Shown piece after piece: positions 954 through 64,000 of a stretch of 64,000 nt of DNA. The stretch is from Seison nebaliae (Eukaryota), in the NCBI GenBank assembly GCA_023231475.1, contig JALJEE010001544.1, forward strand, positions 62,001 through 126,000, written 5' to 3'. Numbering within the stretch: position 1 is the first letter of the stretch; every line of letters starts with the position of its first letter. The translations under genes were made by a program, and so were the position numbers. Under the pieces are notes generated by a model, which was given only the letters and a program-made list of their open reading frames with translations, made no database searches and was not told where the DNA came from.

Positions 954-3900
954 ATGGGAGAACCGAACGAAATGACCGATAGCAAGAATAATTCTTCTTT
1001 TCTCAACCTATCCAAATATCCACTACATTCAGTTAATAATACTACATCTAACAAGTGTAACGAATAATCGATCATCAAATATTTTTCAGAATGTTTATGG
1101 AGTTTTTATGGAAAATCATTTGACATTCTACGGATATAATAATCGTAAGAATAATTATTCGGCCAATAAAGTAGCTAATCGATTATACTTAAAAGACATT
1201 CTACATCGACCGATTAATGATGAAAATTCAGATGGAGAATATATTTGTTAAATTTTATTCTTCTCTACTTTACGTAATTCCAATTTTAATTAGATGGAAA
1301 CAACAATCGAACAAGACAATTAGTATCTCGTGTTGAAAATGGTAAAATTGTTAGTTCCATTTATTTTCTTATCCATCTATGCGTAAGTCGAAGGTAATTC
1401 GACAAATGAAATGTTTTCATAAAAACTAGAAATTTTAGAGTAATATTGATTTTTCTAATAAATTTTATCGATTCATTCTCCTCTCGTATAGTAGTAAATT
1501 ATTCCTTTTCATTCATTTCTTTTATGATTACTCAACAGAAAACTAAACTTCGTCCCCCACAAGACCTTTATGACGACAGGTTCTCTGGCAATCGTTATAC
1601 TCAACCACGATGGCCTAAAGAAATCAAATTAATTCCCGAATATTATCAACCACATTTCTCGATTGATGTCCTAAAAGTCGATTCGAAGAAGGAGATTCAA
1701 CGCTCTTGTCATTATCAGAAAAGTTGAGATTATTCTCCCATTTTAAAAATCTAATAAATTAATTAAATAACAAAACGTTCATAGGCGGAAGAGAACAATT
1801 ACCTAAAGTAAGAAATCCAACATATGGTGGATTCTATAAAATAGTTTATGATAATGAACGAATTACTGATGGTCATGTTAGAAATTGTGTAAGGAAATAA
1901 GTTCACTAAATTTCTTGAATAGTTCGAGAAATCATGTGAAAGAAGTCAGATAACAACTACCTCAATCGAAAATATAAATGAAACTGATAATGTTTTTTTC
2001 TTCAATTTTTTCTTCTCACATTTTATTATTAGTCATCATCCAATGACGGTATTATATTTGAAAGTCGTTTCGAATCCGGAAATCTTATGAGAGCTATCCA
2101 ATTGTTAATTCATTCAATTAAAAGTCATTTAATTTCTCTTGCAGAGAAAATGATTGCTATGAATTGTACATGCAATATGATTTGTATACGGAGAAACATA
2201 CACAATGGTTCTATTTCAGATTTGAGAACGCCAATCCAGAGAAGACATATCGATTTTCTATCCACAATTTTTGTAAAGTTTTCAATCTTATGCTCAAATT
2301 ATTGTCATTGTCATTCCGCCAGTCATCAAGTTTATATGGAGAAGCGATGAAACCGTTATTCTATTCTAAGAAGATGAGCGAACTTAAGAAAATCGGATGG
2401 TATCGGAATGGTGATTCCGTCGTCTATTATCGAAACAATACTTCGTTAATTTTTTCTCTTTATTTCTAAATTATTTTCAATATTTTTTATTTCAATTCTT
2501 TATTTTAGACGAATTGATGATCCAAATAAATATTATTATTCATTATCATGGAAATTCCGGGTGCCATATGATGACGACGTCTGTTATTTCGCTCATTGTT
2601 ATCCTTATACCTATACTGATCTAGAAGTTAATAATTATTGATCGAATAATAACGTCAATTATTCTTTCAGTTATATATCGATGACAAATGGCAGAAACAT
2701 CGAGTTAAACCAAATCTCGAATATTCATCCATCAACTTGTTTACCGATCATCGATTATCTTACACACCACTAGAAATTCGAGAATCTCCAGTTCTTCCTA
2801 AAATAGCAGAAACGGTAAAATCAGAAAAAGAAACGAATGAAATTTCAAGAAAAGAAGATTTCTCGAAAGAGAAAGAAGAAGAAGAAGAAGAAGAAGAATC
2901 GCCAGATGGTGAAAAACCATCAAAAATTCCAATTGAGCAACCCGTTTCTACCACTGACAATATCTTACAGAGACGGATATTGTGTAAAACGGTGGCTGGT
3001 AATCATGTCTGGTTATTGACAATCACATCTCCTTCTCGCAGTGGAATGGAACATCAAAATAAAAAGTTCGTCGTCCTGACAGCTCGAGTACATCCGGGAG
3101 AATCAGTCTCCTCTTGGATGATGAAAGGAATTATCGATTTCTTATTATCAGATAATGACCAAGCGGAAATGTTGAGAAGGAAATTCATTTTTAAGATTAT
3201 TCCAATGTTGAATCCTGACGGTGTAATCATTGGGAATTATCGATGTTCATTATCTGGACGAGATCTCAATCGGAATTATCGGACAGATTTTCGAGAACAA
3301 TTTCCCACCATTTATTCTACTCGACAACTGATAAGAGATTTGAAACAACAGAAAGATATTCTACTTTATTGCGATTTACATGGACATTCGAAAAAGATGA
3401 ATATTTTCGTTTACGGATGTGAAAGTACTTATCATCCGAGTAGATTATATTTATCGCGAATTTTTCCATTTATGCTACATAAAAATGCTCCTGATAAAGT
3501 TACTAATCTGATATCGATAATGTAAATTCTTATTAATTTTTTCTAAGTTCTCTTATTCTTATTCTCGATTTATGATGCAGAAAAGTAAAGAAGGCACGGG
3601 ACGAATTGTTATGTTCAATATGGGAATTACCAACAGTTTCACAATGGAAGTTCCAAATTTCTTTTTGGAATATTTAAAGTTTTTTTGAATCTTTTAGGCT
3701 TCGTTTTGTGGTTCACGGATTGGTAATTTAGCCGGTTATCATTTCAATTCTCAAGACTACGAGCAAATGGGAAAAGATTTCTGTCACACCATCTCCGATT
3801 TCACGAAAGATGATCGTGTTTATGTTAATATTAATTTCATTATAATTCTTCATTTTATTTCTGATAGTTCAATAAAGCATTACATATTATTCAATTGAAA

Positions 3901-5341
3901 TTAAATGGGAAGACTTTTAAGAATTTCATAAATGTTGATACAAATGTTAAAGTTCTGATAAATGACAATGATCTCATGGAGGATGATGACGACAATTTAT
4001 CAGAAGATGACAGTGAAGACTCTTGCGGGAGTGATAGTTCGGAAGATGACGGATTACCTCTACAATATACACAACGTTATCTGAAAGTTCAAATTTTTTT
4101 GAATAATGAGAATAATCTACAAATTCTTTTAGCAACTGAAAACGAATACAACCACGAAAAAAATAAAAACGGCGAAACGTGTGAAATATAAGGTCCAAGC
4201 AAGATATCAATCAAAACCTCAGAAACAAAAGAAACGGAAAAAATCGAAGGAGATCTCACAAAAGAATATCAATGAAGAATTTTCAGTGACAAAAGAGAAT
4301 AAACAAAAATCACCTGTCAAACGTTTATGTCGAAGTGCAGCAGTTACATTGAGGAAATCGGGAGAGAAGAAAGAAAATAGATCAGTCATCACCCTTCCAA
4401 CCGTCACAGAAAAGAATCATGTTAATTCAATACATTTCCAATAAATCATTATAATTTTCAATTATTTCGCAGGTTGAAATGATGGGGAAAATTGATGAGA
4501 AAGATAAAAGTTTTTTTCCCAACATTATTCCAATTTCTCCATTTATTTTATCAGATTTATTAGAATTGGAAAGAATTCGTCGAGAAACGATTCTTCGAGG
4601 TTCATTTCCTCAATTTTAATTTACTTTACAAATTTACATTTCTTTAGGAATTGATAAAGAATTGGCACAACTGAATTTGAGGAAAAAAGTTTAAAATTTT
4701 TAAAGAAGATAATCTTCTAAATTCTCTTTTAGAAAACTCCAATCGAGCAAATCTTATATGAATGGCCAGATAATGAGAATCGTGGAAACATTCTCAATTA
4801 TCTCAACAACAACAATAACAACAATAATTTTAATTGTGGAACTTTTGCATCTTTAGGATTGGCATGTCCCACCAACTCTCCTATAAATCAACAACGTTCG
4901 ACGGAGAAAGTGAAAGAAGAAGAAACGGATAATTTCAAATTAAATTCAAATTATACTTCCAGTTTAATGAAAATAACTCGATCCAAATTACAGAAAACTC
5001 AAAATAATCCTCCAAAGAATTATCATCAGAAAAAACAACATTCAGAACAACAATTCCGATATATCAATCAGGTTAGTTCGGAAAATGAATCGAACGACGA
5101 TAGACATTCAAATTCGGATTATCAAGAACGAAAGAAATCGAATGAGACAGACGAGATTCATGATCTAATCATTCGAGCCACACCTCTCAATCCGAAAGAA
5201 AAGAAAAAGAAACAAAAAATTCCAACAAGTCTCTCCGACGATTGTCTACTATCACACGAATTGAAAATGATGGAAGTCCAATCGACTCTGATCAATAATC
5301 ATATTAAAGAGAATCGCAGAACGAAATCAAGAAGAAATTAA
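954..5341 (+). CDS. AGBL2: Cytosolic carboxypeptidase 2/3-like tubulin deglutamylase (M14), ~19 exons; 5' exons less certain
   Basis: Spliced translation gives FESRFESGNL, DLYTEKHTQWFYF, FAHCYPYTYTDL, ARVHPGES, PMLNPDGVIIGNYRCSLSGRDLNR, DLHGHS and SFTME|ASFCG. 18 GT-AG introns traced (donors 1032,1247,1350,1723,1877,1992,2104,2278,2445,2627,3499,3650,3824,4087,4421,4510,4600,4689). Confidence 0.9.
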
Positions 5342-5410
5342 TATAAATTGATCTATTCATTCTCAACCATAACAAATTACAAGAAAAAACAAATAAAATT
5401 TTTTACAATT

Positions 5411-7129
5411 TTATAAGTTGTTTATCGTTTCCAATTCCATCGCCTTCTCAATTACACCTTCATCGAAATAACCTTTCTTCTTCAACTCCTTCTGCTCTTC
5501 TCGTCGACGTTTAACGTCCTCATCGATTTTCCTCTTCCGTCGACGTATTCCACTTCCATCTATTGATGATACAGTTCCAGATTCTTTCGTTTTTGTCGAT
5601 TTCTTTTTCGTTTTCTCCGGTTGTTGTTCGAAGAAGAAACTGAAATCGAAATCATTATTTTCATCTTCTTTATTCGAGTATAATGCTTCATCAATAGCTC
5701 TGGGATTTATTCTAAAAAAATTGACACAACATTTTAGGAAAGAAACAAAACTTTTCTTCTCGTTTGAATTTCTTCTGAATTTCATTTCTCGATCGAGTCG
5801 GTAATAGTCGTTGCATTAAAGTGAAATCACTTCCAATTAAACTAAGCGCTTTATAGAATCGAACAGTTTCTTTAAAACTAAATTCGATTCATTAGAAATT
5901 ATCAAAGAAAAATAACCGAATTCTGTCCATTGTCGTCGACGGATATTTTGTTTCCGTCTTTCAATCAAACCAATCTTCGATTCAGAAATTATAATCTTTT
6001 CACGATTTATATGTTTGTTCGTTTCCTGAATTGTGATACTTCAAGAGAAATATAGAAACTTAATGATATTCTCGAAAAAAATAATAAAAAATAAATTTCT
6101 CCAAAAAAAAATTTCCTGTTCAGAAAATTGAAAAATTTTTCTATTTAAAAAAATCGTAAAGGAAATAAATAAAAAATTGAACAAATCTTCCATTGAAAAA
6201 ACTCAAATAATTTTTTCTACTAAAACAAACTCGAAAAATTTTTTTCTAGTGAAACGAACTGAAAAAATATTGAATTAAAAATTTTCTTTGATAAAATAAA
6301 AGAATTTATTTAATGTGATCAAGATAATAAAAAAAACCTTTCTTCATCAACAACAAAACTACCATCTTCAGCTAATCGTAATTGTGGAACGATATCAGAA
6401 TTCTCTTTCTTCTCTTCAACTTCATCTTCGATAATTTCGTCGTTTAATTGATCGAGTTGAGATTGAGACATAAAATCTTCAGTTGTGTAAATTGATTCGC
6501 TGACACTGAGAAATTAGGAAAATGTTTGTTTTCGATTAAGAGAAAGAAAACTTCTTCATATAAACGACATCTTTCAATGTCAATTTGCTACAAATAATTT
6601 CTGAAATTTTTTCGTTTGATAATTTCGTTGAATTATTTTTCGACGATGATTTTTTCGATTGTAACTCTTCACCTTTTTCTGGCTGTGTAATGATAGATGA
6701 TGCTGCTATTGATGATTCATTATCATTCATTTCATTAAATTCATTTGTATCTAAAGTGGAAACATTTGACATGTTCATCGAGAATCCTGTATCATTCTCA
6801 CCGAATGAAAGAACGGTTTGATTTTCCAAATCGATTTCTTTTTCGTTTGGTTCATCGTCATCACTTTCTATTTTTTTGGAATGATCAATTTCAACTTTTC
6901 TTTGTTCTGCTTTCAATTCCTCTTGTGCATTCTTCAATAACGTCTTGTAACGACGACGTGATTGTCGTCGACAATTGTTGTGATGAGTTCGATCGCTCTC
7001 TCGTAACAATTTCACTCCATGATTCTTGGTCTGAATATTTTGAATTGTAATGAATTTAAATGAAAATAAAAAAATTCTAACACGAAATTTGACCGCGTGA
7101 TCAGGAATTTGGTCGACATCGTCAGACAT
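5411..7129 (-). CDS. BDP1: TFIIIB subunit B'' (BDP1)-like, short form, 6 exons
   Basis: Spliced product has IVPQLRLAEDGSFVVDEES followed by the Myb/SANT-like WTEFETVRFYKALSLIGSDFTLMQRLLPTRSRNEIQKKFKREEKINPRAIDEAL, typical of Bdp1. Confidence 0.85.
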
Positions 7130-8920
7130 GTTTATTTGAAAAGAATAAAAATTTCCTATATTTTTTGTTTCAAATAAAAATGTCAGCTAGATATTTCAAT
7201 CGAATTCTCTTCTCTAGAAATGATGGATGATAATTGGAGAAGAATATCCATCAATTTATCGGAGAAATGAATAATGTTGTTATGATGATTTAATTATGGT
7301 CCTATCAGATTGTTTTTTCTGTTCATCTTCTATTTTTCAGAAACAGAACAAGATAAATTTATCTAAAATTATCATATATGACTATTGTATCTGATAAATT
7401 TTATTAGAAATGAAGAAGTTGAATTCATAATTTCAATTTTAAAAAAAAATCAAATTAATTCACGTTTTTTAATAGTTTTTTATTGTTAATAAATTCTCCT
7501 CAATTCGTGTAATAGTTGCATAATGATTTCATGATGAATGTTAAAGCTTTTTATGTAAACGAAATATGTTTATGTATCTTGTCCAAAATGTTATGTATAT
7601 GGGAGTCTGTCCAAATTCAGTGTTACACAATAACAAGTTCCATATGGAGTGAGGATAATGATGAAATTGTAACGACCATCAAATTAACATTCATGAATAA
7701 TTCTTATTCGAAATGATTGTGTTCGATCTTACCTCGAATTTCTCTAAAAACCAAACTCCCTTTTAGTTGACATTCAAGTCTCGCTAATAGTAAGAAGAAT
7801 TAAGTGAGGTTGAATAGCTGTAGATGAATAAAGTGCTAAAAAGAAAAGATCAAATATTTTCAGCATGTTGCGGATGTTGCAAATATTGAAAATATGTGAC
7901 TTTACGTCAATCGTTTCTAGTGGTAGCTATGTAAATATAATCACCTTGACAGGTGGGAGGGGAATTGACATTCGATCAAATATTATTCCCACTTACAATT
8001 AGTAGTCATCAAATTTTTCAATGAATTGACTAATAAAATTTATTGAAGAAACTTAATATCTTAATGACTCTGCCCACTTCGAATGAAATTCATTTTAAAG
8101 AGATGAAATTAATTTCTCTATAATCTCTCCATATTGTTTAGAATTATAATAATTTTAATAATATCCTGAACTCCATCATCATAACAGTGTTATGATAACA
8201 CAACTCTTCTTCTTCTTGTTAGTCTTCTTCGTTGAATGTTAGGAAGTTTCTTTTTTATATGTTACTGTGATACATCTTCCCTTTTCTTCTTAAGAACTTT
8301 ATGAGAGTTAGAGCTAACTCAAATCATTTATTAACTGATAAAAATGATTCTCTATTCTAGAATTCTGTTTCGATAAATTTAGATTTCTTTACGTCTCCCC
8401 AATTATCTAACTTATGTATCTTGTTGTCCTTCGTTAAGATATACCTTCTTATCATCGATCTAATTCGAATAATTCTTAATAGAGCCACACGGAACAAATC
8501 ATTTTTCATACTGTAAGTGTAGAAAAATTATATTTCTTCGCAGTTTCTTTTGTTTATTTGTTTGTTCGTAAATTAACATCTTATTAAATTTTTTCATTGA
8601 CCAGTAACTACTCGTCATTAATTTTATCAGCGATCATGTTTTGTTACTGGTCAATAATATTTTAACGATTTTTCTCCTCTAAATAAAAAATTTCGTTAGA
8701 AAAATTCAAATTCTTCTTATTTTCTTCAGAGAATTTTTTTTCATCCTTTCTAAAGAAATGTGTTGAATTGACGAAATTTATTATTCAAATTGACTGTTGT
8801 TATTGATTGGGAAAGAGAGACGAGAATTACTGAGAAATGATAGTGAATTGACAAGAGAAAAAATTTACAAAATTCTTTGAAACGTTTTCATAATTATATT
8901 CCAATCGTTATTCTGGGAGA

Positions 8921-13649: not shown

Positions 13650-14766
13650 ATGGAAAATAGTGAAGTTATTTCATAATTTTCGAATAATTGTTCGTTAAGA
13701 AAAAATGTGATTGAAAGTTCATTTCAGGTGACGATGTCACCTCCGAAGTGAGTAGTATTCAGTCAGCTGGTGAAAAACGGTCGTTACCAATCGATCGGAA
13801 TGATGAAATATTTTCTAAACGAGAACGTCATTTTAGATCGATGCCAATCACTCAACAATACAAGAATGAATATGGTCACATGAATGCGTATGACCGTCAT
13901 AAGGAATTAATTTATAGATATGTTCTAAAAAATGGTTCGGTCAGTTTGAACGACGCTTTCCCCCAAAAAACAGATAAACATGTCCGAGACATTGACGTGA
14001 TCAGAAAATATCAGAAATTTGTTTATGATGATAGTGATGAGGAAGTGGACGACGATGATGATAATGATGAGGAGATGGAGAAGAAAGAATACAGGAAATG
14101 GTGCAGGAAATTAGCGAAACGATATTGGAATAAATTATTTAAAGAATATTGTATTTGTGATTTGACTCAGTACAAGACGAATAGAATTGGAATGAGATGG
14201 AGGACCGAAAAGGAAGTTGTTAATGGCAAAGGACAATTCATCTGTTCCAACAAGAAATGTCAAATCAATAATTCGTTATTGTCATGGGAAATTAATTTTG
14301 GTTATATGGAATATCATCAGAAAAAGAATGAATTAGTCAAATTAAGTTTCAGTTTATTTCTTCTTTTTCTTAAATGGAATTGTTGAAGGATTATGTTCGG
14401 CATGTTCGAAGAAATTAAATTATCATCATCAACGACGATGTGTATCCAAGTTAACGGAAGTTCATTCTATTTCCCAGGAATCATCTTCGACCGATGAGCA
14501 ATGTGAAAAGAAAGAAAGTGAAAAAGATACAAATGAGAAAGAAGATTCAAATGAAAAAAATGAGGAAAAAGATTCAGAAGAAAAAAAGGAAGAAATCGAA
14601 GACAAGTCGAATGATATTTGGGACAAACAAGCAGAAGAAGAATTGAATGACGAAGATGATTCGAAAAGGAGAAAGTTATTTTTTTGAAATTTAACAAATC
14701 ATTCTGTTATGTTTTATTAGGATGGAAGACGAAATGAATGAATTCTTATCCGATTTATTATTATGA
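13650..14766 (+). CDS. FRA10AC1: FRA10AC1 homolog, 4 exons
   Basis: AYDRHKELI, LAKRYWNKLFKEYCICDL, IGMRWRTEKEVVNGKGQFICSNKKC, SWEINFGYME, LVKLRLCSACSKKLNYHH and C-terminal EMNEFLSDLLL*. Confidence 0.9.
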
Positions 14767-15373
14767 ATTTTGATTTTTTTATGTTGGTCAGAAGCTTAAA
14801 ATTTGACTTTTTTTTAAATTTTTATTATAATTATGAAAAATAAAATTTTTGTTTTTTCGAATTTTCGAAGAGTAACACGAGTTTCGATGCATATCGTATT
14901 CGCATAAATGATGAACATAAACTTTTTGAGTGGCTCTGTCAAATGTATTATTCGTTCTTCTCCTCTGCCCTATGGGAATGGTGTTAGTGTACACATGTAA
15001 TTGTGAAAGTTACATAGATGTGCATGTGTAAAAGATATACACATCATGTACACATATATGGACAATTGAGATGGGGAAGAAGAGAGATAAATGAAAAAAA
15101 AATAGTTTTCCCTTCATTGGCAGATTAGAAGAAGAAGAAGAAATCGAAGAATGTGTTAAGAATCGATTGTCAGTAAAAATGTTATCATCCTCCACTATTT
15201 TCTTCTTTCAGTTCTTTTAATTTCAAATTTTCTTTTATTTAACCTTCTTTCTGTACATTTCTCATCAATCCTTTTCCACATGTTTCATGTAATTTCTTTT
15301 CTTTTTCAAATGGTACACGGTCAATTAGTAATATAGATACATTTATTTCTTTCTCTCTAGTTTCCGTGTATTT

Positions 15374-15699: not shown

Positions 15700-17648
15700 A
15701 TGAGTAATCTCGTAGATACGACATCGGCAAATACGTTAAAACGTCGGTCGACAACCGGTTTGCATCTTTTTTCTTCCCTCAGCGAATTAATCATTTCGTC
15801 GACGACATACAACTTAATGTTCAATAATTCCATTTCAATTACTGACTGGGGACTTTCTCTGACTGTTGATATAAATATTTCATTTCATTCATCCGTTAAT
15901 TAAAGGCGAGAATGATAACGATTTGAATGTTTCTAGTGAGAAGAAGAAAAATCTTTGTGATGATTCAAGTTTGATAATAAAATTTTTCATTTAATCTTCT
16001 CCACTAATAGATTTCTTTCTTTTATTTTTTTCTTTATTTCCCTTTCTCATCATATCATCATCATCATCATCATCATCATCATTTACGTTTATCATTCAAT
16101 CAATTATTATAACTTATCTTATTTTGTGAAATTATCATTATTTCGATTCTTAATTTCTATTTTAAGTTGGTCATTTTTATTCTCAATTCATTACCATGCC
16201 AACGATTGTTGTTGTCTCTAATTAATTTCCATTCATCTCCCTCTCCCTTATTTCAAGTTAATCTTTGTGGTAAACAAAAATTGAAGATAACGATAAAATG
16301 GCAAGCGAGGAAACGATTACGGAGAACTTCAATATTCCCAGCAACATGGCTGGAATTGGTTCGTTATATCATTTTTACCATCTCTCTCATCGTTTCTCTC
16401 TTTTGTAGTCATTGGTAAAGGTGGGCAAACGATTTCATCAATCAAATCGGAAACGGGAGCTAAAGTTGAATTACAACCATCAACTTTTCAAAGTCAAGAT
16501 CGTCGAGTGACGATTAGTGGAACTCCGGAACAAGTGAAGTTAATAGAAATTAATTAATTTTTTTGAAATTTAAAAATTTCTTATATTTTTCAGTAATGCT
16601 AAAACACGTATCACAGCGTTACTCACTGATCCACGTCCGACAACTTCATCCAATTCCATATTTACGACGACTCTCGATATTCCTGGGAATAAATGTGGTT
16701 TGGTAATTGGTCGATCTGGTGATACGATCAAAAAATTAGCTGTTCGTTTTCCATTCTGTCTCATTTCACTTTCATTTCATTCATTTAATAGGAACGATTC
16801 TCCGTTAAATTGATGATCGTTCAAGAGAATACGAGTTGTAATGTAATGTCAAAACCTTTGAGAATTTCTGGTGACAGGAAACAAGTGGAATTGGCAGAAC
16901 ATGCTGTTCGAGAATTGATTTCACGAGGCAATGAAGGATCGGGTAAAGGTTTCAATCCCGGAATTCCCAACAACAACAACATGAATGGAGTTGTTAGTGT
17001 TTTCTCCTTTTTCAACTTTTCCATTTAATAATTTTGAAAGAAAACATCAATTTTGACAGTACCAGCAGAAAAGGCAGGAATGGTAATTGGAAAAGGTTAA
17101 TTCAGATTAATTAATTTTATAATATTTTTATCTAAATTTTTTTAGGTGGTGAGACGATTCGAGAAATTAACAGGAAATCTGGTGCATTTGTTGAAATAAG
17201 AAAAGATTCCCAATCAGCAACTGAGAAAGTGTTCGATGTTCGTGGAACGATCGATCAAATTCAAACTGCAATTCAATTAATTCGAAATAAAATTTGGAAT
17301 AATGGTCAAGTGAGTATGATGAATCGACAGGAACAACCATTTCCTAACGCCTTTTCCAACATTCAACAAACTGACGCATTTGGTAATGCAAAAGATCATC
17401 CACCTGATTATTCGTTGCAATGGATCGAATATTATCGGGCACATGGCGAATATGAGAAAGCTAATAGCGTGTTAGCTTCTTATAATATTGCTCATCCAAA
17501 TAATCAATTGCCACCTTTGACCACTACAATTCCAAGTTGGCCGAATCCCTTAGGTCAACCACAGATGGTTGTTCCCAACGCCTCCGGACAAGGACAACCA
17601 CCTCAGCCGCAAGCTAGCGCCAATAATCAGTCATATATCCAACAATAA
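15700..17648 (+). CDS. Psi: FUBP/KHSRP/Psi-family KH-domain RNA-binding protein (3 KH domains); 5' exons uncertain
   Basis: KH motifs AGIVIGKGGQTI, CGLVIGRSGDTIK and AGMVIGKGGETIR; KPLRISGD; C-terminal DYSLQWIEYYRAHG typical of FUBP/Psi. Confidence 0.85.
16053..16082. repeat. (CAT)n microsatellite, intronic
   Basis: Directly visible trinucleotide run. Confidence 0.85.
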
Positions 17649-19624: not shown

Positions 19625-22600
19625 TCATTTTAAATCGAATGTATTCTTATCATCCATCAAATTCTTCCTTCGACGTCGCTGTGATGGACATTCGAATATT
19701 TCAACGAATGGATTAACCATCGTGTCTGTTGGATTGAGAGTTCGATTTATCATAAGATCTGGTAAACTGGTGTTCGTACATTGATCCAATGGATTAAATT
19801 GAGGAATAAATTGATTAGAATATGGTGGCTGTTGTTGTTGTTGGTGGTGGTGGTGATGTTGTTGCTGTTGAGAAATATCAGGAATTTTACTATCGAAAAA
19901 TGAGACAGTTCGATGATGACTGGCAGCTCGAGGATTCATTTCCATATTTGTCATTCGAATTTTCTTCCTTAACAATTGTTCGGAATATGGAGGCATTGGA
20001 GGGGAATGGAGTGGATATTTGTTGAATTCGTTTATTGGATTCATCAGATATTGTTGTTGATCGGACGAGAATATGGATGCTTTCGTTCGATTCATGGTGT
20101 TCGGATGATATTTGTAAAGGTTGGTAGATGGAGCAGGTGGCGGTTGAGTCTCGTACGGAGTCGACCTTTTTTCAAAGAATATTGGAGACATATCATTCGA
20201 ATGTGGTTTGGAAAGAATTTGATTAACATTCAACGAATACTAAAAGACGAGGAATTGTAATGAAAGAGAATTAAATTGAAATTGTGAAAGAAATTTTAAA
20301 CTTGATCAACAAGACAAAGAGTATTCATGATGAGTTGATGGACAGATAAACTTAATTCACAGACGAATGATAAAATTGTTCTGGATTGACATAGCAATAT
20401 CTCATTCTTACTATTACTATTAGCTGAGTAAGCATTCTGTTGTAATAACAATATCAATCGTTGACAGAGTGGGAGAACAGTCTCCAAATGATTGATGAGG
20501 AATGCTTTCTGTTGACATGTATTTGGAATCTGAAATATAATATTTAAAATAAATGATAAAATGAGAGATAATCAACGAACGCATGAGATCAATACTTTCA
20601 CCATATTATAAATTCGATGTATCTCTTTCGTATAAGTAGATATGTGAATGATTAAGGTACCGAGTGCTGCACGAATATCTGTATTATTTGCGAGAATGAA
20701 CTGATGGAATATTTCGAGAATTGTTAAAATTCTTTTCGTTTGTTCTAATAACGGATTGGATTCTTTCAATTGATTCGTTTCCTGAGTATATTGCTTCTGT
20801 TGTTGATGGACGTATCGATCGTAATCGTTGTACATCTCATAAAGGAGAGATTTTAAATCATTATCTAATTTATCAAAGTCTTGTCGGTTGAAAGTTTTGG
20901 TGGGGAATTTAATGGGATCGGTAGCTGGAACTGATTTTGAGAGACGATCATTATTCAACTTCCTCTGAACACGTCCATGTTTACCTCGACGTGGCAATGA
21001 CGTGTAAGTGGAATAATTGGAATTGTTGGAAGGTCGTATATTCTGATTGTTAATGATATTGGGATTATATGGTAATGTGCCTGATATTTTTCGAGAGGAA
21101 TAAGTAGCTGGACGAAAAGTATTTAAATAATTAGATTTCTCCCTCAGATTACTATCATCGAATGAATCGGAGTCAGTATTCGGTTTGAACCATCCAACAT
21201 TCTTCATCGGTTCTGGAAATTCTTCATATAACATCTGCGTTGATGAACGGAATCTGGGATCAGCATATCGATATTTTCTTTTCGTTTTATTCTCATATGT
21301 CACTGGTTGTGATCGTTGATGATGATGATGATGATGATGGTGTTGATGATGATTCTGACGTTGTTCAGGTTGTGTTGCATATCGATTATTTTGATGTGAT
21401 AACATTTGATGCTGATCATAAGAACGATGATGATGTCTCGATTTATTCGATCGTTTATGATGTTTATCATCTTCCATTAATGGTATTGCTGTTCGTCGTC
21501 CTGACGGTTTTAATTCTTCGTCATTCCCAAATGAACGATTACCTGTTGCTGTGGTTGCGGCTATTGTTGTTGTTGTTGTAGCTGATTGTGATGGAAATGT
21601 TGATAAATCAAATAAAGGTGTTGATGATACAGATGTGGTGGTTGTTGTTGTTGTTATGATGGTGGTGGTGTTTGTGGTGGTGTGAAGTGGAGGAAGATGA
21701 GGCAAATTTGATGATTGATGATCAGCTGAGGGATTGATTGGATGCGTCTTCAATTGATTATCGAAAGTCAAACGATATTGTGACCAATATTGTTGTAGTT
21801 CACCGGGTAACAATATTAGTTTCTGTTTGATGGATCGTTCGTAAAGTTGACGGAACTCCTTCAACGAATTCTCCAAACTATTTATACAATTGAATAACAT
21901 ATCGCGGAGAAGTTTCGTTGTGGAATTGAAGTCGAGTATTGTGAAGAGTTCGCTCTGTAAATTCATCTCGACATTTGAATTCAAATTAGTTGCAGTAGAT
22001 GTGGCGGATTGAGGTAGTTTCGTCTTTATAAAATATTTCCTCTGAACAACATACATCGTATAGATGATAGATAAAATCGATTTGACGGTAAGGCAAATGC
22101 TCACGCTCATCAATCGCAAATAACGATGATGATGAATGACTTGGGAACGGAGTGCATCGTCAATAGTCAGTTGACAAGTTAAGTCGAAGATCAAAGACAA
22201 ATGATTCGATTTCTGTTGTAGTTGTAACAAATTCAGTAATTTATTTTGGATCAAATTCAATGATAATTGTATAAGAAATATCTTCTCTTTCTCATTCAAT
22301 TGTTCATCAATAAATTGCTGTTGTTGTTGTTGTTGTTGCTGTTGTTGTTGATATTGTTGCATATTATGATGTTGCTTCATTAAGAAATTATTTTTATGTT
22401 GTTGGAAATAATCAGATGTTATTTGTGTCAATTGCTTAAGATCGTGAAGAGAAATGCGATACCATTTGAAAATAGCCGAATGATGTAAGGACGTAGTAAT
22501 GATATGTAGAGTGAAACGTGTAAACTGAAAGATGAAAATTATTAGAAATGGAACTAGATAAATTTTAAATAAAATAAAAACTTCAGAAGATAATTGAGTG

Positions 22601-30750: not shown

Positions 30751-30872
30751 TATTTCTTCCTTTTTCTATTTCGAACTTTTTCAAAATTTTCTTATTTTCT
30801 TACAATTTTTTTTAAGTTTTTAATTTTGTTCAAGATTTTGTAGAATATTTTTTGAATAAAACAGAAAAGAAA

Positions 30873-41929: not shown

Positions 41930-41949
41930 ATAAATGAGTCAATTGTTAA

Positions 41950-45237
<3,288 letters not shown>

Positions 45238-49653: not shown

Positions 49654-50817
49654 ATGTATCGTGCGAGTAAATTCGATCCGAAAGAATTAGGATTGTCAGT
49701 TGATTTTCAATTGACGTCGTTCTCCAAATTGAAAGGATGAGGATGTAAGGTACCGCAGTCAGAATTAGATAATCTCCTGCGGAAAGTTAAATCAACATTC
49801 GACGACAATTTCAACGATAAAACTAATGGTGAAGGAGACCATTCGAAAGTGCAAGGAATTGGACTAGACACATCTATAACTCCATTATCTCAGAAGAATT
49901 TATACATGATCCAATCAACTGATTTCTTCTATCCTCTAATTAATGATCCTTTCCTAATGGGAAAAATTGCTTGTGCCAACGTTCTCAGTGACGTATACGC
50001 GACCGGAGTACAACGAATCGATAATCTTCAAATGATTCTCACTCTCTCCATCGACATGAATAAAGAGCAACGCTCCAAAATTATTCCTCTATTAATCGAT
50101 GGATTTATTGAGCAGACGAAATGTGCAAAAACCGTCGTGAGCGGTGGCCAAACGGTGAACAATCCATGGATCACTATCGGAGGAACAGTGACGAGTATTT
50201 GTGATGAGTCGGAATTTATCCGTCCAATTAATTCTACTCCTGGTAACGTTCTCGTTCTAACAAAACCACTTGGTACTCAAGTTGCAGTGAACGCTTATCA
50301 ATGGATGATGGAAACGAAGATGGAAAATGAACAGAACGAGATTTTTATTGACTTCTTTAATAAAATCTCACCTATCATCACTAACGAACAAATCGTGGAA
50401 TTATATGATAAAGCTGCTAACCAAATGGCAAGTCTTAATGATATCGGTGCACAATTAATGCACAAATATTGCGCAAATGCAGCAACCGATATTACTGGAT
50501 TTGGCCTATTAGGACATGCTAAAAATTTAGTAGCCGAACAAAATAAATCGGTTAATTTCAAATTCCACACAATGCCATTTTTGGAACATTCGTTGGCCGT
50601 AGATAAAGTTCTTGGTGGAATGTTCAAATTGGAAAATTTCCTCTCAGCTGAAACGAGTGGTGGTCTCCTCATCTCACTACCAAACATATCAACAGCGAAA
50701 GATTTCATTGATGATTATCTCAAAATAAAAGGCTATCCAGCTTGGATAGTCGCCGATGTCGTAGAAGGAAATAGAAATGTTGAATTTTCTTCAAATATAA
50801 AATTTATAGAATGTTAA
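49654..50817 (+). CDS. SEPHS2: Selenophosphate synthetase 2, selenoprotein with in-frame TGA at 49738-49740
   Basis: ATG 49654 gives MYRASKFDPKELGLSVDFQLTSFSKLKG-TGA-GCKVPQ in frame with ORF 49849-50817 (TDFFYP, GKIACANVLSDVYA, GGQTV, LTKPLGTQVAVNA, ATDITGFGLLGHA, ETSGGLL). Confidence 0.93.
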
Positions 50818-50851
50818 CTTTTTTCAATTATTTTTTTGTCGTCCAATTTTT

Positions 50852-51238: not shown

Positions 51239-53974
51239 TCAATAAATTTCACTATTCAATAACATATTTGTCTTAACTGTTGTTGGTGTTGTTGTTGGGG
51301 CGAGAGAAAAAGAAGATGTTGTCATGGCAGTTGATAAATCATTATAATTATTAAGAAATGTTCCACCAGTACTTGTTGTTGTCGTGGTAGATAATAATGG
51401 TAAAGATGTACCGATTGCTGATATAGGTGACGGTAAATTTTTTGATTTGATGGTTTTGCTTGAAGATTTCATACTTTTCCCTCTATCATTATCCGGTTCA
51501 ATGATATTCGTTTGTGAATGAACACGAAGATGTCTATTTAGATTTCCCGATTGAGAGAATCTCAAGAAACAAATTCGACATTGATATGGTTTCTCGCCAC
51601 TGTGTATTCTCATATGTTTCGTTAGTGTACTTGAATCACTAAAAGCTTTCCTACACAATCGACATCTAAAGTAACAAAACAATTAAATATTTTTTTGCAA
51701 AATTCTGAACATTGTTTTTTGATTAAGAAAAATTCCGAAAATTGTTATTTGGTTAAGAAAAATTTCTGGGAAAAATTCCAAAAATTGTTTTTTGATTAAG
51801 AAAAATTTTTTGGAGAGATTTAAAAAACCGGTTTTTTTAAGATACTCAAAAATTACTAACCGATATGGTCTCTCCCCAGAATGCGTCCTCATGTGTGTGG
51901 TGACGGAGGAGGATTGAGAGAATTTACGAGAACATATCGGACAGGCGAATGGTTTCTCTCCACTATGTGTCCGAAGATGTGCTGTTAAGTTGGCTGCTTG
52001 AGAGAAAGTTTTCGAACATTTGGGACATTTGTATGGTTTCTCTCCCTGAGAAGATAATGGAAAAGAACAAAAAGAATAAACAAACCGAATGTGTTCTCAT
52101 ATGTGTCTTCAATGTACTCGGTCTAGCGTAAGTTTTCCCGCAGATCTTACACAAATTCAGTTTGGCAGTTCCGTCCATTTGTTGTTTTAATGAGGAGTGT
52201 ATTGCTGTCAATTCAGCCATAGCTCGTTCCATTGTTGTGGAAGGAGAAGGAAATTCTAAATGGCCCAACATTGACGGAACGTTGGTGGTGGTTTTTGAAA
52301 AGATGTCGTTCAATACATTCGATTGACTTGGAAATAAATTACAGAAACTTTAGAGAATGTTAAATAGTTGAATGAAGAGGAAGAAAACTTGGGATTTTGT
52401 TCTATTTGATTTCTGACATTATAATCATATTCGTAGTATTTTGCAAGAATTTCATTCGCTGAATTAATATCGAGTATTGGAGTAGTATTTACGTCTTGCA
52501 ACATCTCCAACGAGAACTGAGACTCGTACATTAATTTCAATTGTTTCTCAATTTCCATTCGGTCGTTGGAATTGTGAATATTATTCTTCTCACAATAACT
52601 ATCCAATTCAATTGCCAACTTATCCGTTTCTATTTGTGAAATTGGATCAGATAAACCGTTTTCACTATTCGGCAATTTGACGAGTGTCTCCGAATTCATC
52701 TCAAGCGGCTTCTCATGGAACGATGAGGAGTCGAGTGAAGAGAATGAAGAGTTGTAAGAGATATTGTAATTGGATGAGAGGAGATTCTCGCCGTTCTTAT
52801 CAAATTGATAATTGGCTGGAATGTTAGCGAGTGTCTGCTGATGATTCCAATCATTCGATTCGATTGATGTATGAATCAATTTTTCGGTTTGATTCTGAAA
52901 GAAAATATTACAATTATTTAAATTATTCAAATTTATCTGATTTTGATTTTGATTTTGAAGATTATTGAGAAGTAAATTATTCATTTCAATCTTGTTCGAC
53001 ATATCTCCATTTCTTTTATTTTCTCCATTTCTTCTGTTTGTCTGATTTTCTTCATTTTTTTCTTCTATTCTCATTTCATTTCCATCTTTATTTGCTTCAT
53101 CTTCTCTCACAAAACTTTTCGGAAATGTTTGATGTTGTTGTTGCTGTTGTTGTTGTTGTTGTTCGATAAATAATTTGAGTTGATGTTGTTGAATTTTCTC
53201 GACGTTCTCGAGTGCTTCGTCCAACAAATGTGTTTGGTGCAGTTGGTGATGATTGAGATGGTCATGTTTATTCGTGTCATTCACCTTCGACTCATTGGAT
53301 GAAGTATTGACATTGTTTGTTGTGGGAATTGAGGAGTTGGACGATGAAGATGAAAACGATGAGAGTTGAGAGTTGGACGTGGAGATAATATGAAATTGTG
53401 AATTATTCTCATTGGTTTGTTGATTGGCGAAAAGTTGTTGATAGAAGAAATAATTGAGATATTCGTTTGAGAAATTATTAGAGAAATCATTGGATTGTGA
53501 TGGGAAAACGGAATATGGATAATAATTTTGATTGTCATTCGCATTTGTTAATAAATTTTGTTCCTCAGTTGCTTGACTTGTCTCATCGTCCGCTTGTTGT
53601 TGTTGTGGTTGATATGATAAGTTGGAAGTGAGACAAGTTGATGGTGGAAACTTTTTCATAATTTCAATATTCTCTTCCATTAATGGCAATTTGATTTGAG
53701 GAAGATCATCATCTTCACCGTCGTCCGAAATAAGTTGTTTTGATCGTTTCCTACGATTATTTCCATTATTCTCTTCCATCATCTTCTCTTTCATTCCACA
53801 ATTATTCATTAGCAACGATGGCTTAAAATCATTAGCATGAACGATATTCATGCTTCCAATTATCTGACTCCGATCGGGAATGTACTCAGATAGAAAATCT
53901 TTCGTCAAATTCTCTAATCGAATCAAATAAGAAAGTAAATACTTCGAAATGAAATAGTGTTTGATCGATGACAA
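51239..53974 (-). CDS. gl: Glass C2H2 zinc-finger transcription factor (5 fingers); 5' end uncertain, possibly extends to ATG 55090
   Basis: Fingers [44 protein letters not shown] and [10 protein letters not shown] are the Glass signature. Confidence 0.93.
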
Positions 53975-56933: not shown

Positions 56934-57494
56934 TTTTTTTTGAATTATTCATCAGAAATTTCACATTATTTTTATACAAGAATATTCCTAAGAAGTTTTT
57001 TGGTGTTTTATTTAAAAAAAGTTTAGCGAACTAACAACAAAATTTCTTGATAGTTGAGAGAAAATAATGTAGTTTATTGATGATTGTTATTAGAAGTGAT
57101 ATGGTTGTCGTAAGTTGGATGATTTTGAAGAAATCATCTTTTTTCAGGAGATGAAGAAGTAAGAAGATTCCAGGAAAAATATACTTTATTTTTCTCATTT
57201 CATTTCAATTTCAATAAATATCAACAATAGGATTAATATCGGACTATGAAATCAAATAAAACAAAACGGAATCTCTTTCATGCAAATAATTTACATCGTC
57301 TTCTCCCTTCTCACCACAAACAACAAATCGTATAACAAAATAACAATAACGAGAAAAAAAATAGCAACAAACAAAAAAAATGATCAGTATATTCATCCAC
57401 AGGAGAAAAAGTTCCATAAGGAAAAAAATATGAAACTTTTTCAAGAGAATATTCTGAAAACTTTTTTAAGAATCATTATTTACAATATCCTTCA

Positions 57495-59404
57495 TCAATA
57501 ACGTCTTCCTCCTCCACCCATTCCAAAATTCTGATTTGTTCGTTTCCTAAAAGTTCCACCTCGCGAATATCTACTATAATTCTTTCCAGACATCGGTTGG
57601 CGGATGGAATATAATTCTTCAGGAATAATTTGATTCGCCTCTTTCATCACATTGATCAAATTGCGAATATGTCGAGCGTTATCTTGAGTGAAGAATGTAT
57701 AAGCGATACCTCTATTTCCAGCTCTTCCGGTACGACCGATTCGATGAATATAATCTTCCGTGTCATTTGGGAAATCATAATTAATCACAAACGAAATATC
57801 ATCAATATCTTTTAAAAAAAAAGTTTGAAAATAGAAAAAGTTGAAAAATTAACCTAATCCTCTTGACGCGACATCAGTTGCAACTAGAGCGATAGAATCA
57901 GTAGCACGTTTAAATTCTGGAAAAATTTCAAAAATAAAATAATAAAATTAAAAAATGTTCAACTGTTCAACATTCCTTCACGAACATCTTGTGATTTGTC
58001 ACCATGGATACCGATAGCTTTATATCCCCAAGAACGGATATTTCTTGCCAATTCATCTACTTTCACTTTCCTCTCACAAAATATGATGGTTTTTTGTTTC
58101 TCTTTTTCAGTAATTGTTTTGAGAATTTGTTGGAGACGTTCTTCTTTTTCATGTTCTAACAATAAAATAACTTTTTGTTCAATGTCATGATTCGCTGTTA
58201 ATTCTAATCCACCAATAGTAATATGAATATAATCTTGAATATAATTCGTTGCCAAACTAACAACTTCTTTGGGCCATGTAGCTGAAAACATCATCGTCTG
58301 TCTAGTTGGACGCATCTGTCCTAATATCTGTTTAATTTGTGGTTCGAATCCCATGTCCAACATTCGATCTGCCTCATCCAATACCAAATAAGTGACTTCA
58401 TCAATTATTATTCGACGTGTCGTTATAAAATCAATTAATCGACCAGGTGTAGCTATCAAAATATCTACACCAAATCTGAAAGTTTCCAATTGTTCTCGAC
58501 GTGGTGCTCCACCATAACAACACGCAGTTCTGATTCTTTTCGACTCTGAAAACAATTTGGCAACTTGATGAATTTGTTGAGCTAATTCTCTGGTGGGAGC
58601 GAGAACGAGACATCTAGGACGATTTTTTGTTGATGTTCGTTCATTTCCTTGAAGATGACGAACTGCTGGTAAAAGGAAAGCCATAGTTTTTCCACTACCA
58701 GTTTGAGCGATTCCAACCACATTCGAACCATTCATTAATAGAGGCCATGCCACACTCTGAATACATGTTGGTCTTTCATATTTGGCTTTTTCGAAAACTT
58801 CCATCAAATCTTTCTGAAGATTCATTTCTTCGAATGTCATAATTGGTTTATTCACTTCCATTTGACAAGTGGCTGTTTTCGTTATCGATAATTGATTTTT
58901 TACACGGAATTCATTCAATTCTTCAGGTTGTCGATTTTTTGTTATTTCACTCTCCAAATAAAATTCTTTCTCGAAATCGGCTATTGGAATTTTGGAGAAA
59001 TCGATCGGAATTAATTGACCATTTTCCTGTGGCAAAGGTGTCCAATTCGAATTTCCTCTATTATTATTATTATTATTATTATTATATCCATTTCGATCGT
59101 TATTATTATTATTATATCCGTTTCTATCATTGTTATTATTATATCCATTTCTATCATTATTATTATTATATCCATTTCGATCATTATTATTATTATATCC
59201 ATTTCCGTTTCGATAACTATTATTTCCATTTTCTCCATTACCTCCCCAATTATTAGAGGGACGTCCACGATCCCCATTATATCGATTATTCTGTGGTCGA
59301 TTGAATCTTTCAGTCCGATAATGGGAAGATCTACTGGGAGGAGAATGATTACTTCTCGACCGATATCTCGATTGGTTACTATCTTCACCATTCATTTCTG
59401 TCAT
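57495..59404 (-). CDS. DDX5: DEAD-box RNA helicase DDX5/DDX17/Dbp2-like, 3 exons
   Basis: [63 protein letters not shown] and [12 protein letters not shown]. Confidence 0.85.
59060..59210. repeat. Coding tandem repeat (~24 nt unit, RNGYNNNND) in the helicase N-terminus
   Basis: Five NGYNNNN units are visible in both DNA and translation. Confidence 0.9.
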
Positions 59405-60443: not shown

Positions 60444-60553
60444 TATTTCAGAATGTAGACTGTGCATCTTCAACGAACTAAAGGAAAGATGTCTATGTTG
60501 GAATTGTTCTCAGAAGACCATCGTGATAGGAAATGACATTATTATCACCAATG
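60444..60553 (-). ncRNA. SNORD35: U35/snR73-type box C/D snoRNA, copy 1 (divergent)
   Basis: C-like GTGATAA, guide TCACGATGGTCT followed by T and D' CTGA, C'-like TTGAAGA, D CTGA (60451-60448). Confidence 0.75.
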
Positions 60554-60713
60554 TTTTAGGAATAATGTGTAGAGAATAAATGAAAAATACAAACGTTTTA
60601 AAAATTTTCAAGTTAAGTTAAATCATGTCCGAAATGAGTCTAAAAATGATATAAAAAAAATCATTAAATCAATTCGAATAATAATTGAAATATGTTTTTC
60701 AAAATTATTTTAA

Positions 60714-60822
60714 ATAATCAGATTAAAATATTTTTCTACTTCATAAAACGAATTAAATGATGTCGATGTTGGATTTGTTTTCAGAAGACCATCGTGAAAT
60801 GAAAAATTTATCATCACCAATA
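60714..60822 (-). ncRNA. SNORD35: U35/snR73-type box C/D snoRNA, copy 2
   Basis: C GTGATGA (60817-60811), guide TTTCACGATGGTCT, D' CTGA (60784-60781), C'-like ATGAAGT, D CTGA (60721-60718). Confidence 0.85.
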
Positions 60823-60974
60823 TTCGAGGAATGATTTGAAGAATAAATAAAAATTACAAACCGTTTTATAGTTAAATATTAAATCATGTCCGAAATGAGT
60901 CTAAAAATGATATAAAAAAAATCATTAAATCAATTCAAATAATAATTGAAATATGTTTTTAAAAATTATTTTAA

Positions 60975-61083
60975 ATAATCAGATAAAAATATTTTTGTAC
61001 TTCATAAAACGAATTAAATGATGTCGATGTTGGATTTGTTCTCAGAAGACCATCGTGAAATGAAAAATTTATCATCATTCAAG
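60975..61083 (-). ncRNA. SNORD35: U35/snR73-type box C/D snoRNA, copy 3
   Basis: C ATGATGA (61078-61072), guide TTTCACGATGGTCT, D' CTGA (61045-61042), C'-like ATGAAGT, D CTGA (60982-60979). Confidence 0.85.
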
Positions 61084-61235: not shown

Positions 61236-61907
61236 TTATTTTCCTGGCATAACAATTCCTTCATACTGAAATGAAATAGAGAAGAAGAAAAAGAAGAATT
61301 TAGAGTAACTTTTAGTTTGAACCATTTAATTGCATCAGCTTTATTTAAGATATGATTTCTTCCTATTCGATTTCGTTGTTTCTTTCGATAGGAGACATTG
61401 TATCCTGGTCGATCCAAAACAACATAGAAATCTAAGCCATAAATACCGATGGCGGGATCGTATTTAATACCCAAATCGATATGTTCCTGAATACCGAACC
61501 CAAAGTTGCCTTGTGGAGTGAAATTACTTTCTTTCAATTCGAATTCTTTCACCTTAACAATGAACAAAGAATGGAATAATGAGAAATGGATAGAACTTTC
61601 AATCCCTTTTCAAGGATGTCATGCGCCTTCTCTCCTCGAATTGTACAATGCACCGCAATTTTCTCATTACGACGGATACCGAACGATCGAACTGTATATC
61701 TGGCCTTCGAAAATACAGGAACTTGTTCTGTCAGTTGTTCCAAGACTTTGGAGGCACGAGTCAATCTATCACCCGATTCTCCCACCGATATATTCAGGCA
61801 CAATTTCCTGATTCGTACATTTTTCATCACATTCTCATTTTGTTCCTATTAAATTTCCTAAAATAGTGAATGAGACGAGGATACAAATCAAAGATACGAA
61901 CGTCCAT
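61236..61907 (-). CDS. RPL11: 60S ribosomal protein L11 (uL5), 4 exons
   Basis: [41 protein letters not shown]...GLK|VKEFEL...[11 protein letters not shown]...[13 protein letters not shown]. Introns 61846-61901, 61553-61596 and 61266-61309. Confidence 0.97.
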
Positions 61908-62533: not shown

Positions 62534-64000
62534 TTATTCGACGGGAGGAGAGGTTAGGAGTTGAACAACTGTCCGACCATTTGTGTCCATGTTAACCGGT
62601 ATTGTGGACGCTAAAAATAGACGAGAAAAATTAAATTAAAAATAAACTTAATTAATTAACTTTGTAGTAAATGGTCATTTGCTTCGTTGGAATTAATATC
62701 TTCAAATTCTTCTTCATTTGCAGATAATCCATCAATTCCCTCATTCTCTACTTCTTTTAATTCTTGTGGAGTTGTTTTTTGAACCATTTGATTTTCGAAT
62801 AATTCGTTAAGTTTCGTAGAAGTTGAAGCGACACCCCCTAATTCTTTCGACTCATCTATAGTTTTCGTCAATTCTTCTGCTTTTATTCCTCCAGCTAATG
62901 GTCTTTTTATTTCTTTTTTTATTTGCTCTTGTGCTTCTACTTGTTGTACTTGTTCTTGTTCTTGTTGTTCGTGTTCTATTTGTTCTTGTTGTTCTATTTG
63001 TTCTTGTTGTTGTTTTTGTTGATCCTTTATGTTAAATTCTTCTACTTGTTCTCTCGGTAATCTTTCAGATATCTGTTGATTTTCTGTTTCATCTATTTCT
63101 TCAACTGGTTCTTCTTCTGACGACATTTCTACATCTTCCACTGGCGATATGGATTCATCTGGTAACTTAATTTCTTCCACCTTAAATTCTTCTTCTTCTT
63201 CAATTTGATCTTGTTCGTTATCTGAATTTATTTCATTCGTATCTAATGATACAGTTTTGGAAACGGTTTCTTTTTGTGGTTGCTCAGAAATTGACACACC
63301 ATCATCATAATCTGGTATATTATTCGAATTTAAATTATTCGTATATTCTCGGAATGAATTGATTGATTGTAGATCGATGTGATCCTTATATTCTTCTTCT
63401 GACATCATTCCATGATCATTGTTATCGATTGATTCTGAATTGTCACTTGGATGCATTTCTATTTCATTTGGTTTCATCGAATCATATTGTTCATTCTCCT
63501 CCTCCATTGTGTCCATCATTTCTGTAGTTTCAGGATTTCCTTCCGGTTGTTCCATTTCGGCAGTTTCTGCTGTAATAGTTGTCGTTTTTTCCGTTTTCAG
63601 TTCTTCCTTTTTCAGTTTCTTATTCAGTTGCTTCATTTTTCTCCTCAACATCTTCTTCCATTTTCTCTTTAAATTCCTTTTATTTTTTCGAAGTTTTCGT
63701 TTATTTCTCTTCTTTGAATTGACTTTGAGAATGGGCAAAATTTTGATTTGGGGATTGGGTTCTACTATTTGAATTGGCTCAGGATTCATGGCAATTGGAA
63801 CTTTTCCATTTTCCTCCACCAATTTCCATTGCGGATGTTGTCTTGGATTCGTTAACAAATCCTCCAAATTATTCACGTTTTGCTGAACAGGTTTATAAGA
63901 AAAAGTTTCTGGATTGCTTCCCAATAATTGTTGTCGATTATCAATTTTATGATATTTTATTTCTCCCAAATTGTTCGGTATTTCATTATTGAGATCTCTT
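62534..64000 (-). CDS. Partial (3' part) acidic E/Q-rich protein of unknown function; continues beyond the window
   Basis: Frame is open from the window edge to ~62661. A short GTT...TAG intron joins a last exon TSTIPVNMDTNGRTVVQLLTSPPVE*. Confidence 0.7.

Follow-up and report, generated by a model that had tools for sequence, protein, structure and literature searches.

Near-universal GTT 5′ splice sites in a 64-kb genomic window of the rotifer Seison nebaliae

The DNA considered here is a window of 64,000 nucleotides (contig JALJEE010001544.1 of assembly GCA_023231475.1, forward-strand positions 62,001 to 126,000) from Seison nebaliae, an epizoic marine rotifer that comprises two cryptic lineages and whose genome measures about 46 Mb (PMC8351084). 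It carries the genes collected in Table 1, among them a cytosolic carboxypeptidase (CCP) 2/3-like gene, the soluble adenylate cyclase gene ADCY10, an SH2 and tyrosine-kinase gene and a selenophosphate synthetase (SelD) gene, and our subject is the 5′ splice sites (donors) of their introns, nearly all of which begin with GTT. Three exon queries from the window were 100% identical to the S. nebaliae proteins SNEBB_003605, SNEBB_003617 and SNEBB_003615. All positions are window positions, and introns were placed from the DNA sequence and protein homology alone. Within donors, intron bases are numbered from +1 and exon bases backwards from -1, with // marking the boundary.

A first-pass annotation of the window had traced about 80 introns and described all but three as starting with GTT. 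Our merged set is smaller, holding 68 introns, of which 66 begin with GTT, one with GTA, one with GTG and none with GTC, so that the near-universality of GTT was upheld, and by three tests none of which presupposes it. Four public gene models contribute 41 GTT donors out of 42, and a gene model that disregards position +3 contributes 25 out of 26. For the first test, public S. nebaliae proteins were threaded exactly onto the window, the sole demand on a donor being that it form a GT/GC–AG intron; CCP gave 18 GTT donors out of 18, ADCY10 16 out of 17, SelD one out of one and SNEBB_003615 six out of six, and all 42 introns have GT...AG ends. For the second, hidden Markov models (HMMs) built from non-Seison homologues only (58 for CCP and 38 for ADCY10, being every second match of part of the lists) were used to score 35 CCP and ADCY10 introns against every frame-keeping GT/GC..AG alternative. 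In 23 of them the GTT donor either had no non-GTT rival or led every such rival by 4 bits or more, and the CCP sites 2104, 2278, 3499 and 3650, which the first-pass annotation had regarded as fixed by homology, are among these. The HMM approach was chosen because a spliced aligner run with one non-Seison protein at a time, which we discarded, fixed only one to four introns per protein and made three wrong-looking calls in poorly conserved parts. The third test was a gene model in which +3 is emitted from the intron background, trained on CCP, ADCY10, SelD and long open reading frames (ORFs) and run on 21 other regions. Its 30 held-out donors with a posterior of at least 0.9 comprise 29 GTT and one GTG (43255), and all 30 stayed in place when +3 was replaced by A in silico. 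Summed over all posteriors, the expected counts at +3 are T 42.7, A 2.5, C 1.6 and G 1.2, that is, 42.7 GTT out of 48.0 (89%). The RPL11 donors 61596 and 61309 named earlier were both recovered; 61309 is preferred over 61322, also a GTT, because homology extends to the end of that exon. In the FUBP/PSI-like KH gene a fifth intron has three candidate donors, every one of them GTT.

Table 1. Genes and introns of the window (window positions)
Feature	Position	Strand	Introns, donors and basis
CCP 2/3-like gene, SNEBB_003605	954..5341	+	18 introns, all GTT; public model and homology HMMs
CCP GTT donors	1032, 1247, 1350, 1723, 1877, 1992, 2104, 2278, 2445, 2627, 3499, 3650, 3824, 4087, 4421, 4510, 4600, 4689	+	
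Unnamed gene	5380..7200	-	Four confident GTT donors: 6551, 6337, 5916, 5751; donor-neutral model
FRA10AC1 gene	13650..14770	+	Confident GTT donor 14675; GTT favoured in two more introns
FUBP/PSI-like KH gene	16299..17648	+	Confident GTT donors 16359, 16539, 16742, 17096
Vinculin/alpha-catenin-family gene	19625..24950	-	Confident GTT donors 24786, 22581, 20301
WD40 gene and GNL1-like GTPase gene	28857..32935	+	GTT donors: WD40 29075; GNL1-like 30955, 31503
SNEBB_003615	32961..34061	-	6 introns, all GTT: 34006, 33809, 33612, 33363, 33256, 33047; public model
ADCY10 gene, SNEBB_003617	35517..41929	+	17 introns, 16 GTT; public model and homology HMMs
Exception intron TTG//GTAAGG in ADCY10	41280..41329	+	Fixed by homology
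SH2 and tyrosine-kinase gene	42037..44026	-	7 introns; GTT 43704, 42829, 42701, 42444, 42286 and 43450/43459
Exception intron GAG//GTGATT in SH2/tyrosine-kinase gene	43212..43255	-	Four frame-keeping donors for the acceptor, all non-GTT
39-nt GTT intron of SH2/tyrosine-kinase gene	42791..42829	-	GTT start unchanged in second haplotype
SelD gene	49654..50817	+	One intron 49699-49749, GTT...AAG; public protein P0206
C2H2 zinc-finger gene	51290..53974	-	GTT donors 52388, 52085; 51860 GTT (0.73) vs 51845 GTA (0.27)
DEAD-box helicase gene	57460..59400	-	2 introns, both GTT; donor-neutral model
RPL11 gene	61240..61901	-	GTT donors 61596 (posterior 1.0), 61309 (homology), 61901 (0.76)

The three exceptions claimed by the first-pass annotation fared differently. 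The GTAAGG donor at 41280 is real, leading its GTT rival by 23.8 bits in the homology HMMs, and the intron ending in the acceptor paired with 43255 is an exception whichever of its frame-keeping donors is used. Both have G at -1 and A at +4 and pair well to the remainder of a standard U1. The third, GTAACG at 33386, is probably no donor: it lies inside a coding exon of the SNEBB_003615 model, two of its four reachable acceptors lead to a stop within five codons, and 33363 (GTTCAA) is the donor used in the public model as well as by the neutral model (0.97). By eye, two standard-looking donors were also seen on the minus strand upstream of start codons, AAG//GTAAGG at 24968 and CTG//GTAATA at 12642; these may be chance occurrences or introns of 5′ untranslated regions with the ancestral motif.

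Some results speak against so general a rule. The homology HMMs left 11 of the 35 introns undecided, in poorly conserved parts, and in four of these a non-GTT rival had the better score, by up to 1.5 bits; three lower-confidence calls of the gene model lean away from GTT, namely 24841 (GTC, 0.76) and 20595 (GTA, 0.71, with GTT at 20580 as its competitor) in the vinculin/alpha-catenin-family gene and 28946 (GTA, 0.81) in the WD40 gene. Because these three sit outside the 68, from which lower-confidence calls were excluded, the true share of GTT is about 89-97%. One could then ask whether the pattern is an artefact or a passive effect, arising from annotation circularity, from T-rich composition or from a definition of short introns by length alone, all the more as the public models were built by a procedure outside this analysis and the introns considered here were placed from DNA. 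We consider this explanation hardly credible. The donor-neutral HMM and gene-model tests give GTT. T makes up 0.478 of the intron background, against which 64 GTT donors in an earlier subset of 66 have p=2e-18; T follows an internal GT in 49 of 86 cases, and GTT accounts for 643 of the 1634 GT dinucleotides in these genes. Since +3T is far above both the intron T content and the share of GTT among the GTs, base composition, which the first-pass annotation had named as a possible refutation, is ruled out as the cause. In addition, seven short introns bypass a nearby GTR site that would match standard U1 better, and the same aligner logic yields GTA in relatives with introns of equal length, as described below. 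We therefore have little doubt that the GTT donor shift in this window is real.

The relatives were reached through ADCY10. An alignment of seven bdelloid ADCY10 proteins retrieved 23 metagenome loci, all with bdelloid best matches; five near-identical loci were removed, and 17 of the 18 others yielded introns with a donor-neutral spliced aligner. Their 43 introns start with GTA in 34 cases, GTT in five and GTG in four; 33 have A at +4, 12 have G at -2 and 40 are 47-74 nt long. These introns are not independent, and at the seven confident positions the majority donor is GTA in five, GTT in one and GTG in one; taken per position, the contrast between Seison and the bdelloid-like loci has p=1e-6. 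As introns just as short start mostly with GTA in these loci (34 of 43), neither shortness nor composition explains GTT, and length-only definition, which the first-pass annotation had offered among several possibilities, was rejected. None of the eight bdelloid ADCY10 intron positions coincides with any of the 17 in Seison, so that a conversion of old introns to GTT is not demonstrated by this comparison.

The lack of shared positions (0 of 8) might suggest that the introns of Seison are mostly new, derived from a mobile element ending in GTT and merely tolerated by the spliceosome, and G at -1 in only 17 of 68 donors is weak for old proto-splice sites. We find this very improbable. No family likeness was seen among the 68 introns beyond matches of 12-17 nt (old elements would have decayed past detection), exon end and intron end, compared in a search for duplicated target sites, share no letter in 51 of 68, and the intron phases (21:10:5) show the usual bias. 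Moreover, the compensation between donor classes described below and the retention of GTT in a second haplotype point to selection on function. This second haplotype is about 85% alike at 40050-43800, and in the intron 42829-42791 it differs at 11 sites or more, including +5 and +6, with none of +1 to +4 among the sites listed, at this one donor. The contigs over 40050-43800 are unspliced DNA without any spliced joint and hold no evidence for or against splicing. They are of low depth and about 83-90% alike over the exons there, ADCY10 and the kinase gene being adjacent in them too, fitting a second Seison lineage. The proposal of the first-pass annotation that donor recognition has been rewired in this lineage thus gains support from a +3T far above composition, from relatives that do not have it and from its retention in the second haplotype at the one readable donor.

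Beyond +3, the donors follow a pattern of their own. The first-pass annotation had seen no GTRAGT consensus and had regarded +4 to +6 as free. A purine at +3 occurs in only two of the 68 donors and a GURAG donor once, and +4 and +6 do match the background (n=66; +4A in 24, +4T in 25 vs a background of 0.478; +4T is 26 of 68 in the merged set). Position +5, however, is enriched for G (14 of 66 vs 0.066, p=8e-5; 15 of 68 in the merged set), and to say that nothing beyond GTT is conserved would be too strong. On the exon side, -2 is A in 41 of 66 and G in none, and -1 is A in 35 and G in 17; the absence of -2G extends to all 68 (p=2e-6 vs the coding background). G at +5 is found in 13 of the 26 donors without -2A, vs 2 of the 42 with it (table [[2,13],[40,13]], p=2e-5), an anti-correlation that holds separately in the public models (p=0.0016) and in the model-only introns (p=0.007) and is absent from 489 decoy GTT sites (p=0.72). 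Two compensating donor classes thus exist, one with A-ended exons, mostly NAA//GTT, and one with +5G, NYN//GTTNG, and this compensation is the known see-saw between U5 loop 1 and the U6 ACAGA box. GTT is present in 41 of the 42 -2A donors and in 14 of the 15 +5G donors. C is not found among the 66 donors with a pyrimidine at +3, which at the C share of introns would occur by chance with a probability of 5e-8.

As for the remainder of the introns, 62 of 66 are 39-64 nt long. Acceptors are TAG in 27, CAG in 25 and AAG in 14 of 66, with no G at -3, bearing out the earlier remark that AAG is common, and a T-rich tract precedes them (T in 44-49 of 66 at -8 to -6); 36 of those 66 introns had served to train the acceptor model. 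Among the window introns no covariation was seen between +3 and the acceptor -3, or between +5G and the acceptor. When seven branch-point motifs were compared with shuffles, only CTAA was borderline (15 vs 9.4, p=0.03 uncorrected). U12-type introns have an RTATCCTT donor and a strong branch site; no donor of this type is present among the 68, and no clear branch motif stands above shuffles. In the BUSCO table of PMC12256650, as far as its rows were searched, Seison and both acanthocephalans have ZMAT5 scored as Missing, and for ZCRB1 this score extends to monogononts as well, hinting at a loss of the minor spliceosome in Pararotatoria.

Regarding the major spliceosome, an Rfam scan of the 64-kb window found no small nuclear RNA (snRNA). 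The rows searched of the same BUSCO table score METTL16, the U6 N6-methyladenosine (m6A) methyltransferase gene that the first-pass annotation had wished to see checked, as Missing in Seison alone, the gene being present in the 24 other assemblies of 25, both acanthocephalans included; this outcome favours rewired donor recognition. SNRNP27, which was also to be checked, is scored Complete, as are PRPF8, ZMAT2 (Snu23), KIN17, PRPF6 and PRPF31; SNRNP40 and LSm2 are Missing, and U1C and LUC7 do not occur in those rows (PMC12256650).

It is likely that splicing in Seison reads the start of introns by a changed rule. In the standard pairing registers, U1 position 6 lies opposite +3, and the U6 ACAGA box spans +2 to +6, where +4 stands across from the methylated A. 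The reading that we favour, with a probability of roughly 0.4, is that U1 has a changed 5′ end whose adenosine at position 6 (a predicted U-to-A change) recognises +3U, in a major spliceosome that has probably lost U6 m6A; for such a U1 change Entamoeba offers a precedent, described below. The partner of a strict U at +3 would be A, because G would accept C too and GTC is absent. The +3U would be verified at a step common to both donor classes, most simply U1 binding, as it is fixed in both the -2A and the +5G class, which would themselves correspond to the conserved U5 loop 1 and U6 ACAGA classes. With METTL16 lost, GURAG (+4A) donors may no longer have been favoured, which would have freed +4, and the remaining information would come from the intron length of 40-60 nt and the T-rich acceptor. 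In C. elegans, mett-10 mutants abandon GURAG donors, two quoted shifts leading to AA//GUUGU and UG//GUUG (PMC11347140). A shifted U1 register, with AA//GUU pairing to the very 5′ end of U1, was disfavoured because +3U is fixed also in donors without AA.

Several points weigh against this reading. Even a U1 that carries A at position 6 is predicted to form, on average, only about 5.2 of 9 pairs, the absence of -2G is not explained by pairing with U1 or U5, and coding exons show no avoidance of AR//GTT (p=0.54). A standard U1 is described in most lineages with shifted donors, namely yeasts, Giardia, Trichomonas, Thecamonas and Micromonas (bioRxiv 2022.06.08.495308), and Fritillaria, with shifted donors, keeps one as well (PMC13326754). 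The loss of METTL16 in yeasts accompanies +4U and not +3U (PMC10581693), and Seison has no preference for +4U; by this precedent METTL16 loss would explain the lost +4A and GURAG, but not +3U. Finally, a BUSCO score of Missing means undetected: 356 of 954 are missing in Seison, and since 76 of these are present in N. agilis, a single Missing call has a base rate of about 8% (PMC12256650).

It could also be, although we hold it to be rather unlikely, that U1 is standard and that U6 selects the U at +3, through the central A of ACAGA, left unmethylated once METTL16 was lost, or through a changed ACAGA box; a bulge at +4, for example, would keep +5G paired with the C. METTL16 being scored missing in Seison only would fit, as would a free +4 next to a selected +3U and a conditional +5G; m6A:U pairs are described as unfavourable (PMC11732430), and Fritillaria alters the methylation of its snRNA, not the sequence (PMC13326754). 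However, a feature read by U6 should relax in the -2A (U5-type) class, where 41 of 42 donors are GTT, and a G·U wobble with the G of ACAGA would admit the GTC that is absent here. ACAGA is furthermore invariant in 240 fungal and outgroup genomes, and yeasts without METTL16 retain +3A (PMC10581693). Alternatively, the snRNAs may all be standard and a diverged protein (U1C, LUC7, SNRNP27, PRPF8 or Snu23) may have a pocket demanding +3U, which seems improbable to us. The exclusion of -2G resembles a protein effect more than base pairing, SNRNP40 and LSm2 are scored missing, so that the spliceosome proteins of Seison would have changed, and snrp-27 mutants of C. elegans shift the choice at +3 (PMC11732430, PMC11347140). 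Against this, SNRNP27, PRPF8, ZMAT2 and KIN17 are scored Complete, although these are presence calls and not sequences. We know of no case in which a protein alone has fixed a new +3 base.

Of the systems described so far, several resemble Seison in part. U2-type donors have the consensus GTRAGT with a purine at +3, and Entamoeba, which is intron-poor, has GUUUGU donors (96.9-98.5% GUUUGN) with a co-evolved U1 ACAAAC (bioRxiv 2022.06.08.495308). Seison shares with it a near-universal +3U, U2-type GT-AG ends and short AT-rich introns. Unlike the strict six- to seven-base motif of Entamoeba, however, only +3 is fixed, +4 is free and +5G appears only as compensation; Seison is also intron-rich (17-18 introns in two genes), and its U1 change is predicted only. 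Other animals have two classes of 5′ splice sites, AG//GU read by U5 loop 1 and //GURAG read by the U6 ACAGA box (PMC11732430), and in Seison -2A and +5G are likewise anti-correlated, whereas the classes take the forms NAA//GTT and NYN//GTTNG and the preferences for -1G and +4A are lost. The switch from +4A to +4U that goes with loss of METTL16 and SNRNP27K in Saccharomycotina (PMC10581693) is similar in that Seison has lost the +4A preference with METTL16 scored missing. Those yeasts, however, gained +4U, kept +3A and have few introns without the two classes, while Seison has +3U, no +4U, many introns, both classes and SNRNP27. Among animals, non-canonical intron ends are described in Fritillaria borealis (PMC13326754) and, as GA/GG donors, in Eurytemora (PMC5714493). 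Donor usage is shifted in an animal there too, with altered U6 m6A in Fritillaria, but the terminal dinucleotide is relaxed, whereas in Seison GT-AG is retained and the rule becomes stricter through a fixed new third base.

Some further observations concern the surrounding genes. FRA10AC1, the FUBP/PSI-like protein, which has a FUBP_C motif, and the DEAD-box helicase are linked to splicing by putative roles, and their shared presence in the window is presumably a coincidence. The C2H2 zinc-finger gene is the putative ‘glass’ of the first-pass annotation. SNEBB_003615 encodes a hydrophobic protein of 270 residues whose sole match in a weak search was itself (one match from two candidates), with no Pfam match in three ORF pieces. 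Two alike stretches noticed by eye on the minus strand, 47500-47690 and 48370-48560, suggest a small tandem gene duplication. At 60440-61080 an AT-rich unit of about 270 bases occurs in duplicate; its Rfam matches to C/D small nucleolar RNAs (snoRNAs) are weak and below the curated threshold (best E 0.034), and it could represent lineage-specific snoRNAs.

In our literature search, GTT donors were not described for Seison, nor a near-universal +3U for any animal; a 2024 Hydrobiologia paper on syndermatan annotation and the supplements of the Entamoeba preprint, which were outside its scope, may bear on this. In the portions available, splice sites come up a single time in the Seison genome paper, in its methods, two of its supplements contain no matches to splicing terms, and PMC10125929, PMC3464624, PMC12690905 and PMC2483917 do not describe a GTT shift. 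What we see is a real lineage-specific donor shift, kin to the kind known from Entamoeba. A wider statement, namely that throughout the genome of the intron-rich S. nebaliae the 5′ splice site was recoded from GTR to GTT, through loss of U6 m6A (METTL16) and a core snRNA with a changed pairing face, while thousands of introns and the two donor classes were retained, has in our judgement about even chances.

How splice signals and the spliceosome change together while thousands of sites stay recognisable is an old question, and the cases in the literature compared here are mostly intron-poor microbes, most of them with a standard U1. The combination seen in Seison, with +3 fixed, +4 free and METTL16 scored missing, opens three questions to direct testing in public data: what reads +3, be it an snRNA or a protein, whether animal life is possible without U6 m6A, and how the changes were ordered in time relative to acanthocephalans, which have kept METTL16, and bdelloids, which have kept GTA. 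On the practical side, gene finders and splice predictors that have learned from other animals will place donors wrongly in the Seison lineage. If true, the shift would be a natural experiment in the co-evolution of a metazoan spliceosome and its substrates.

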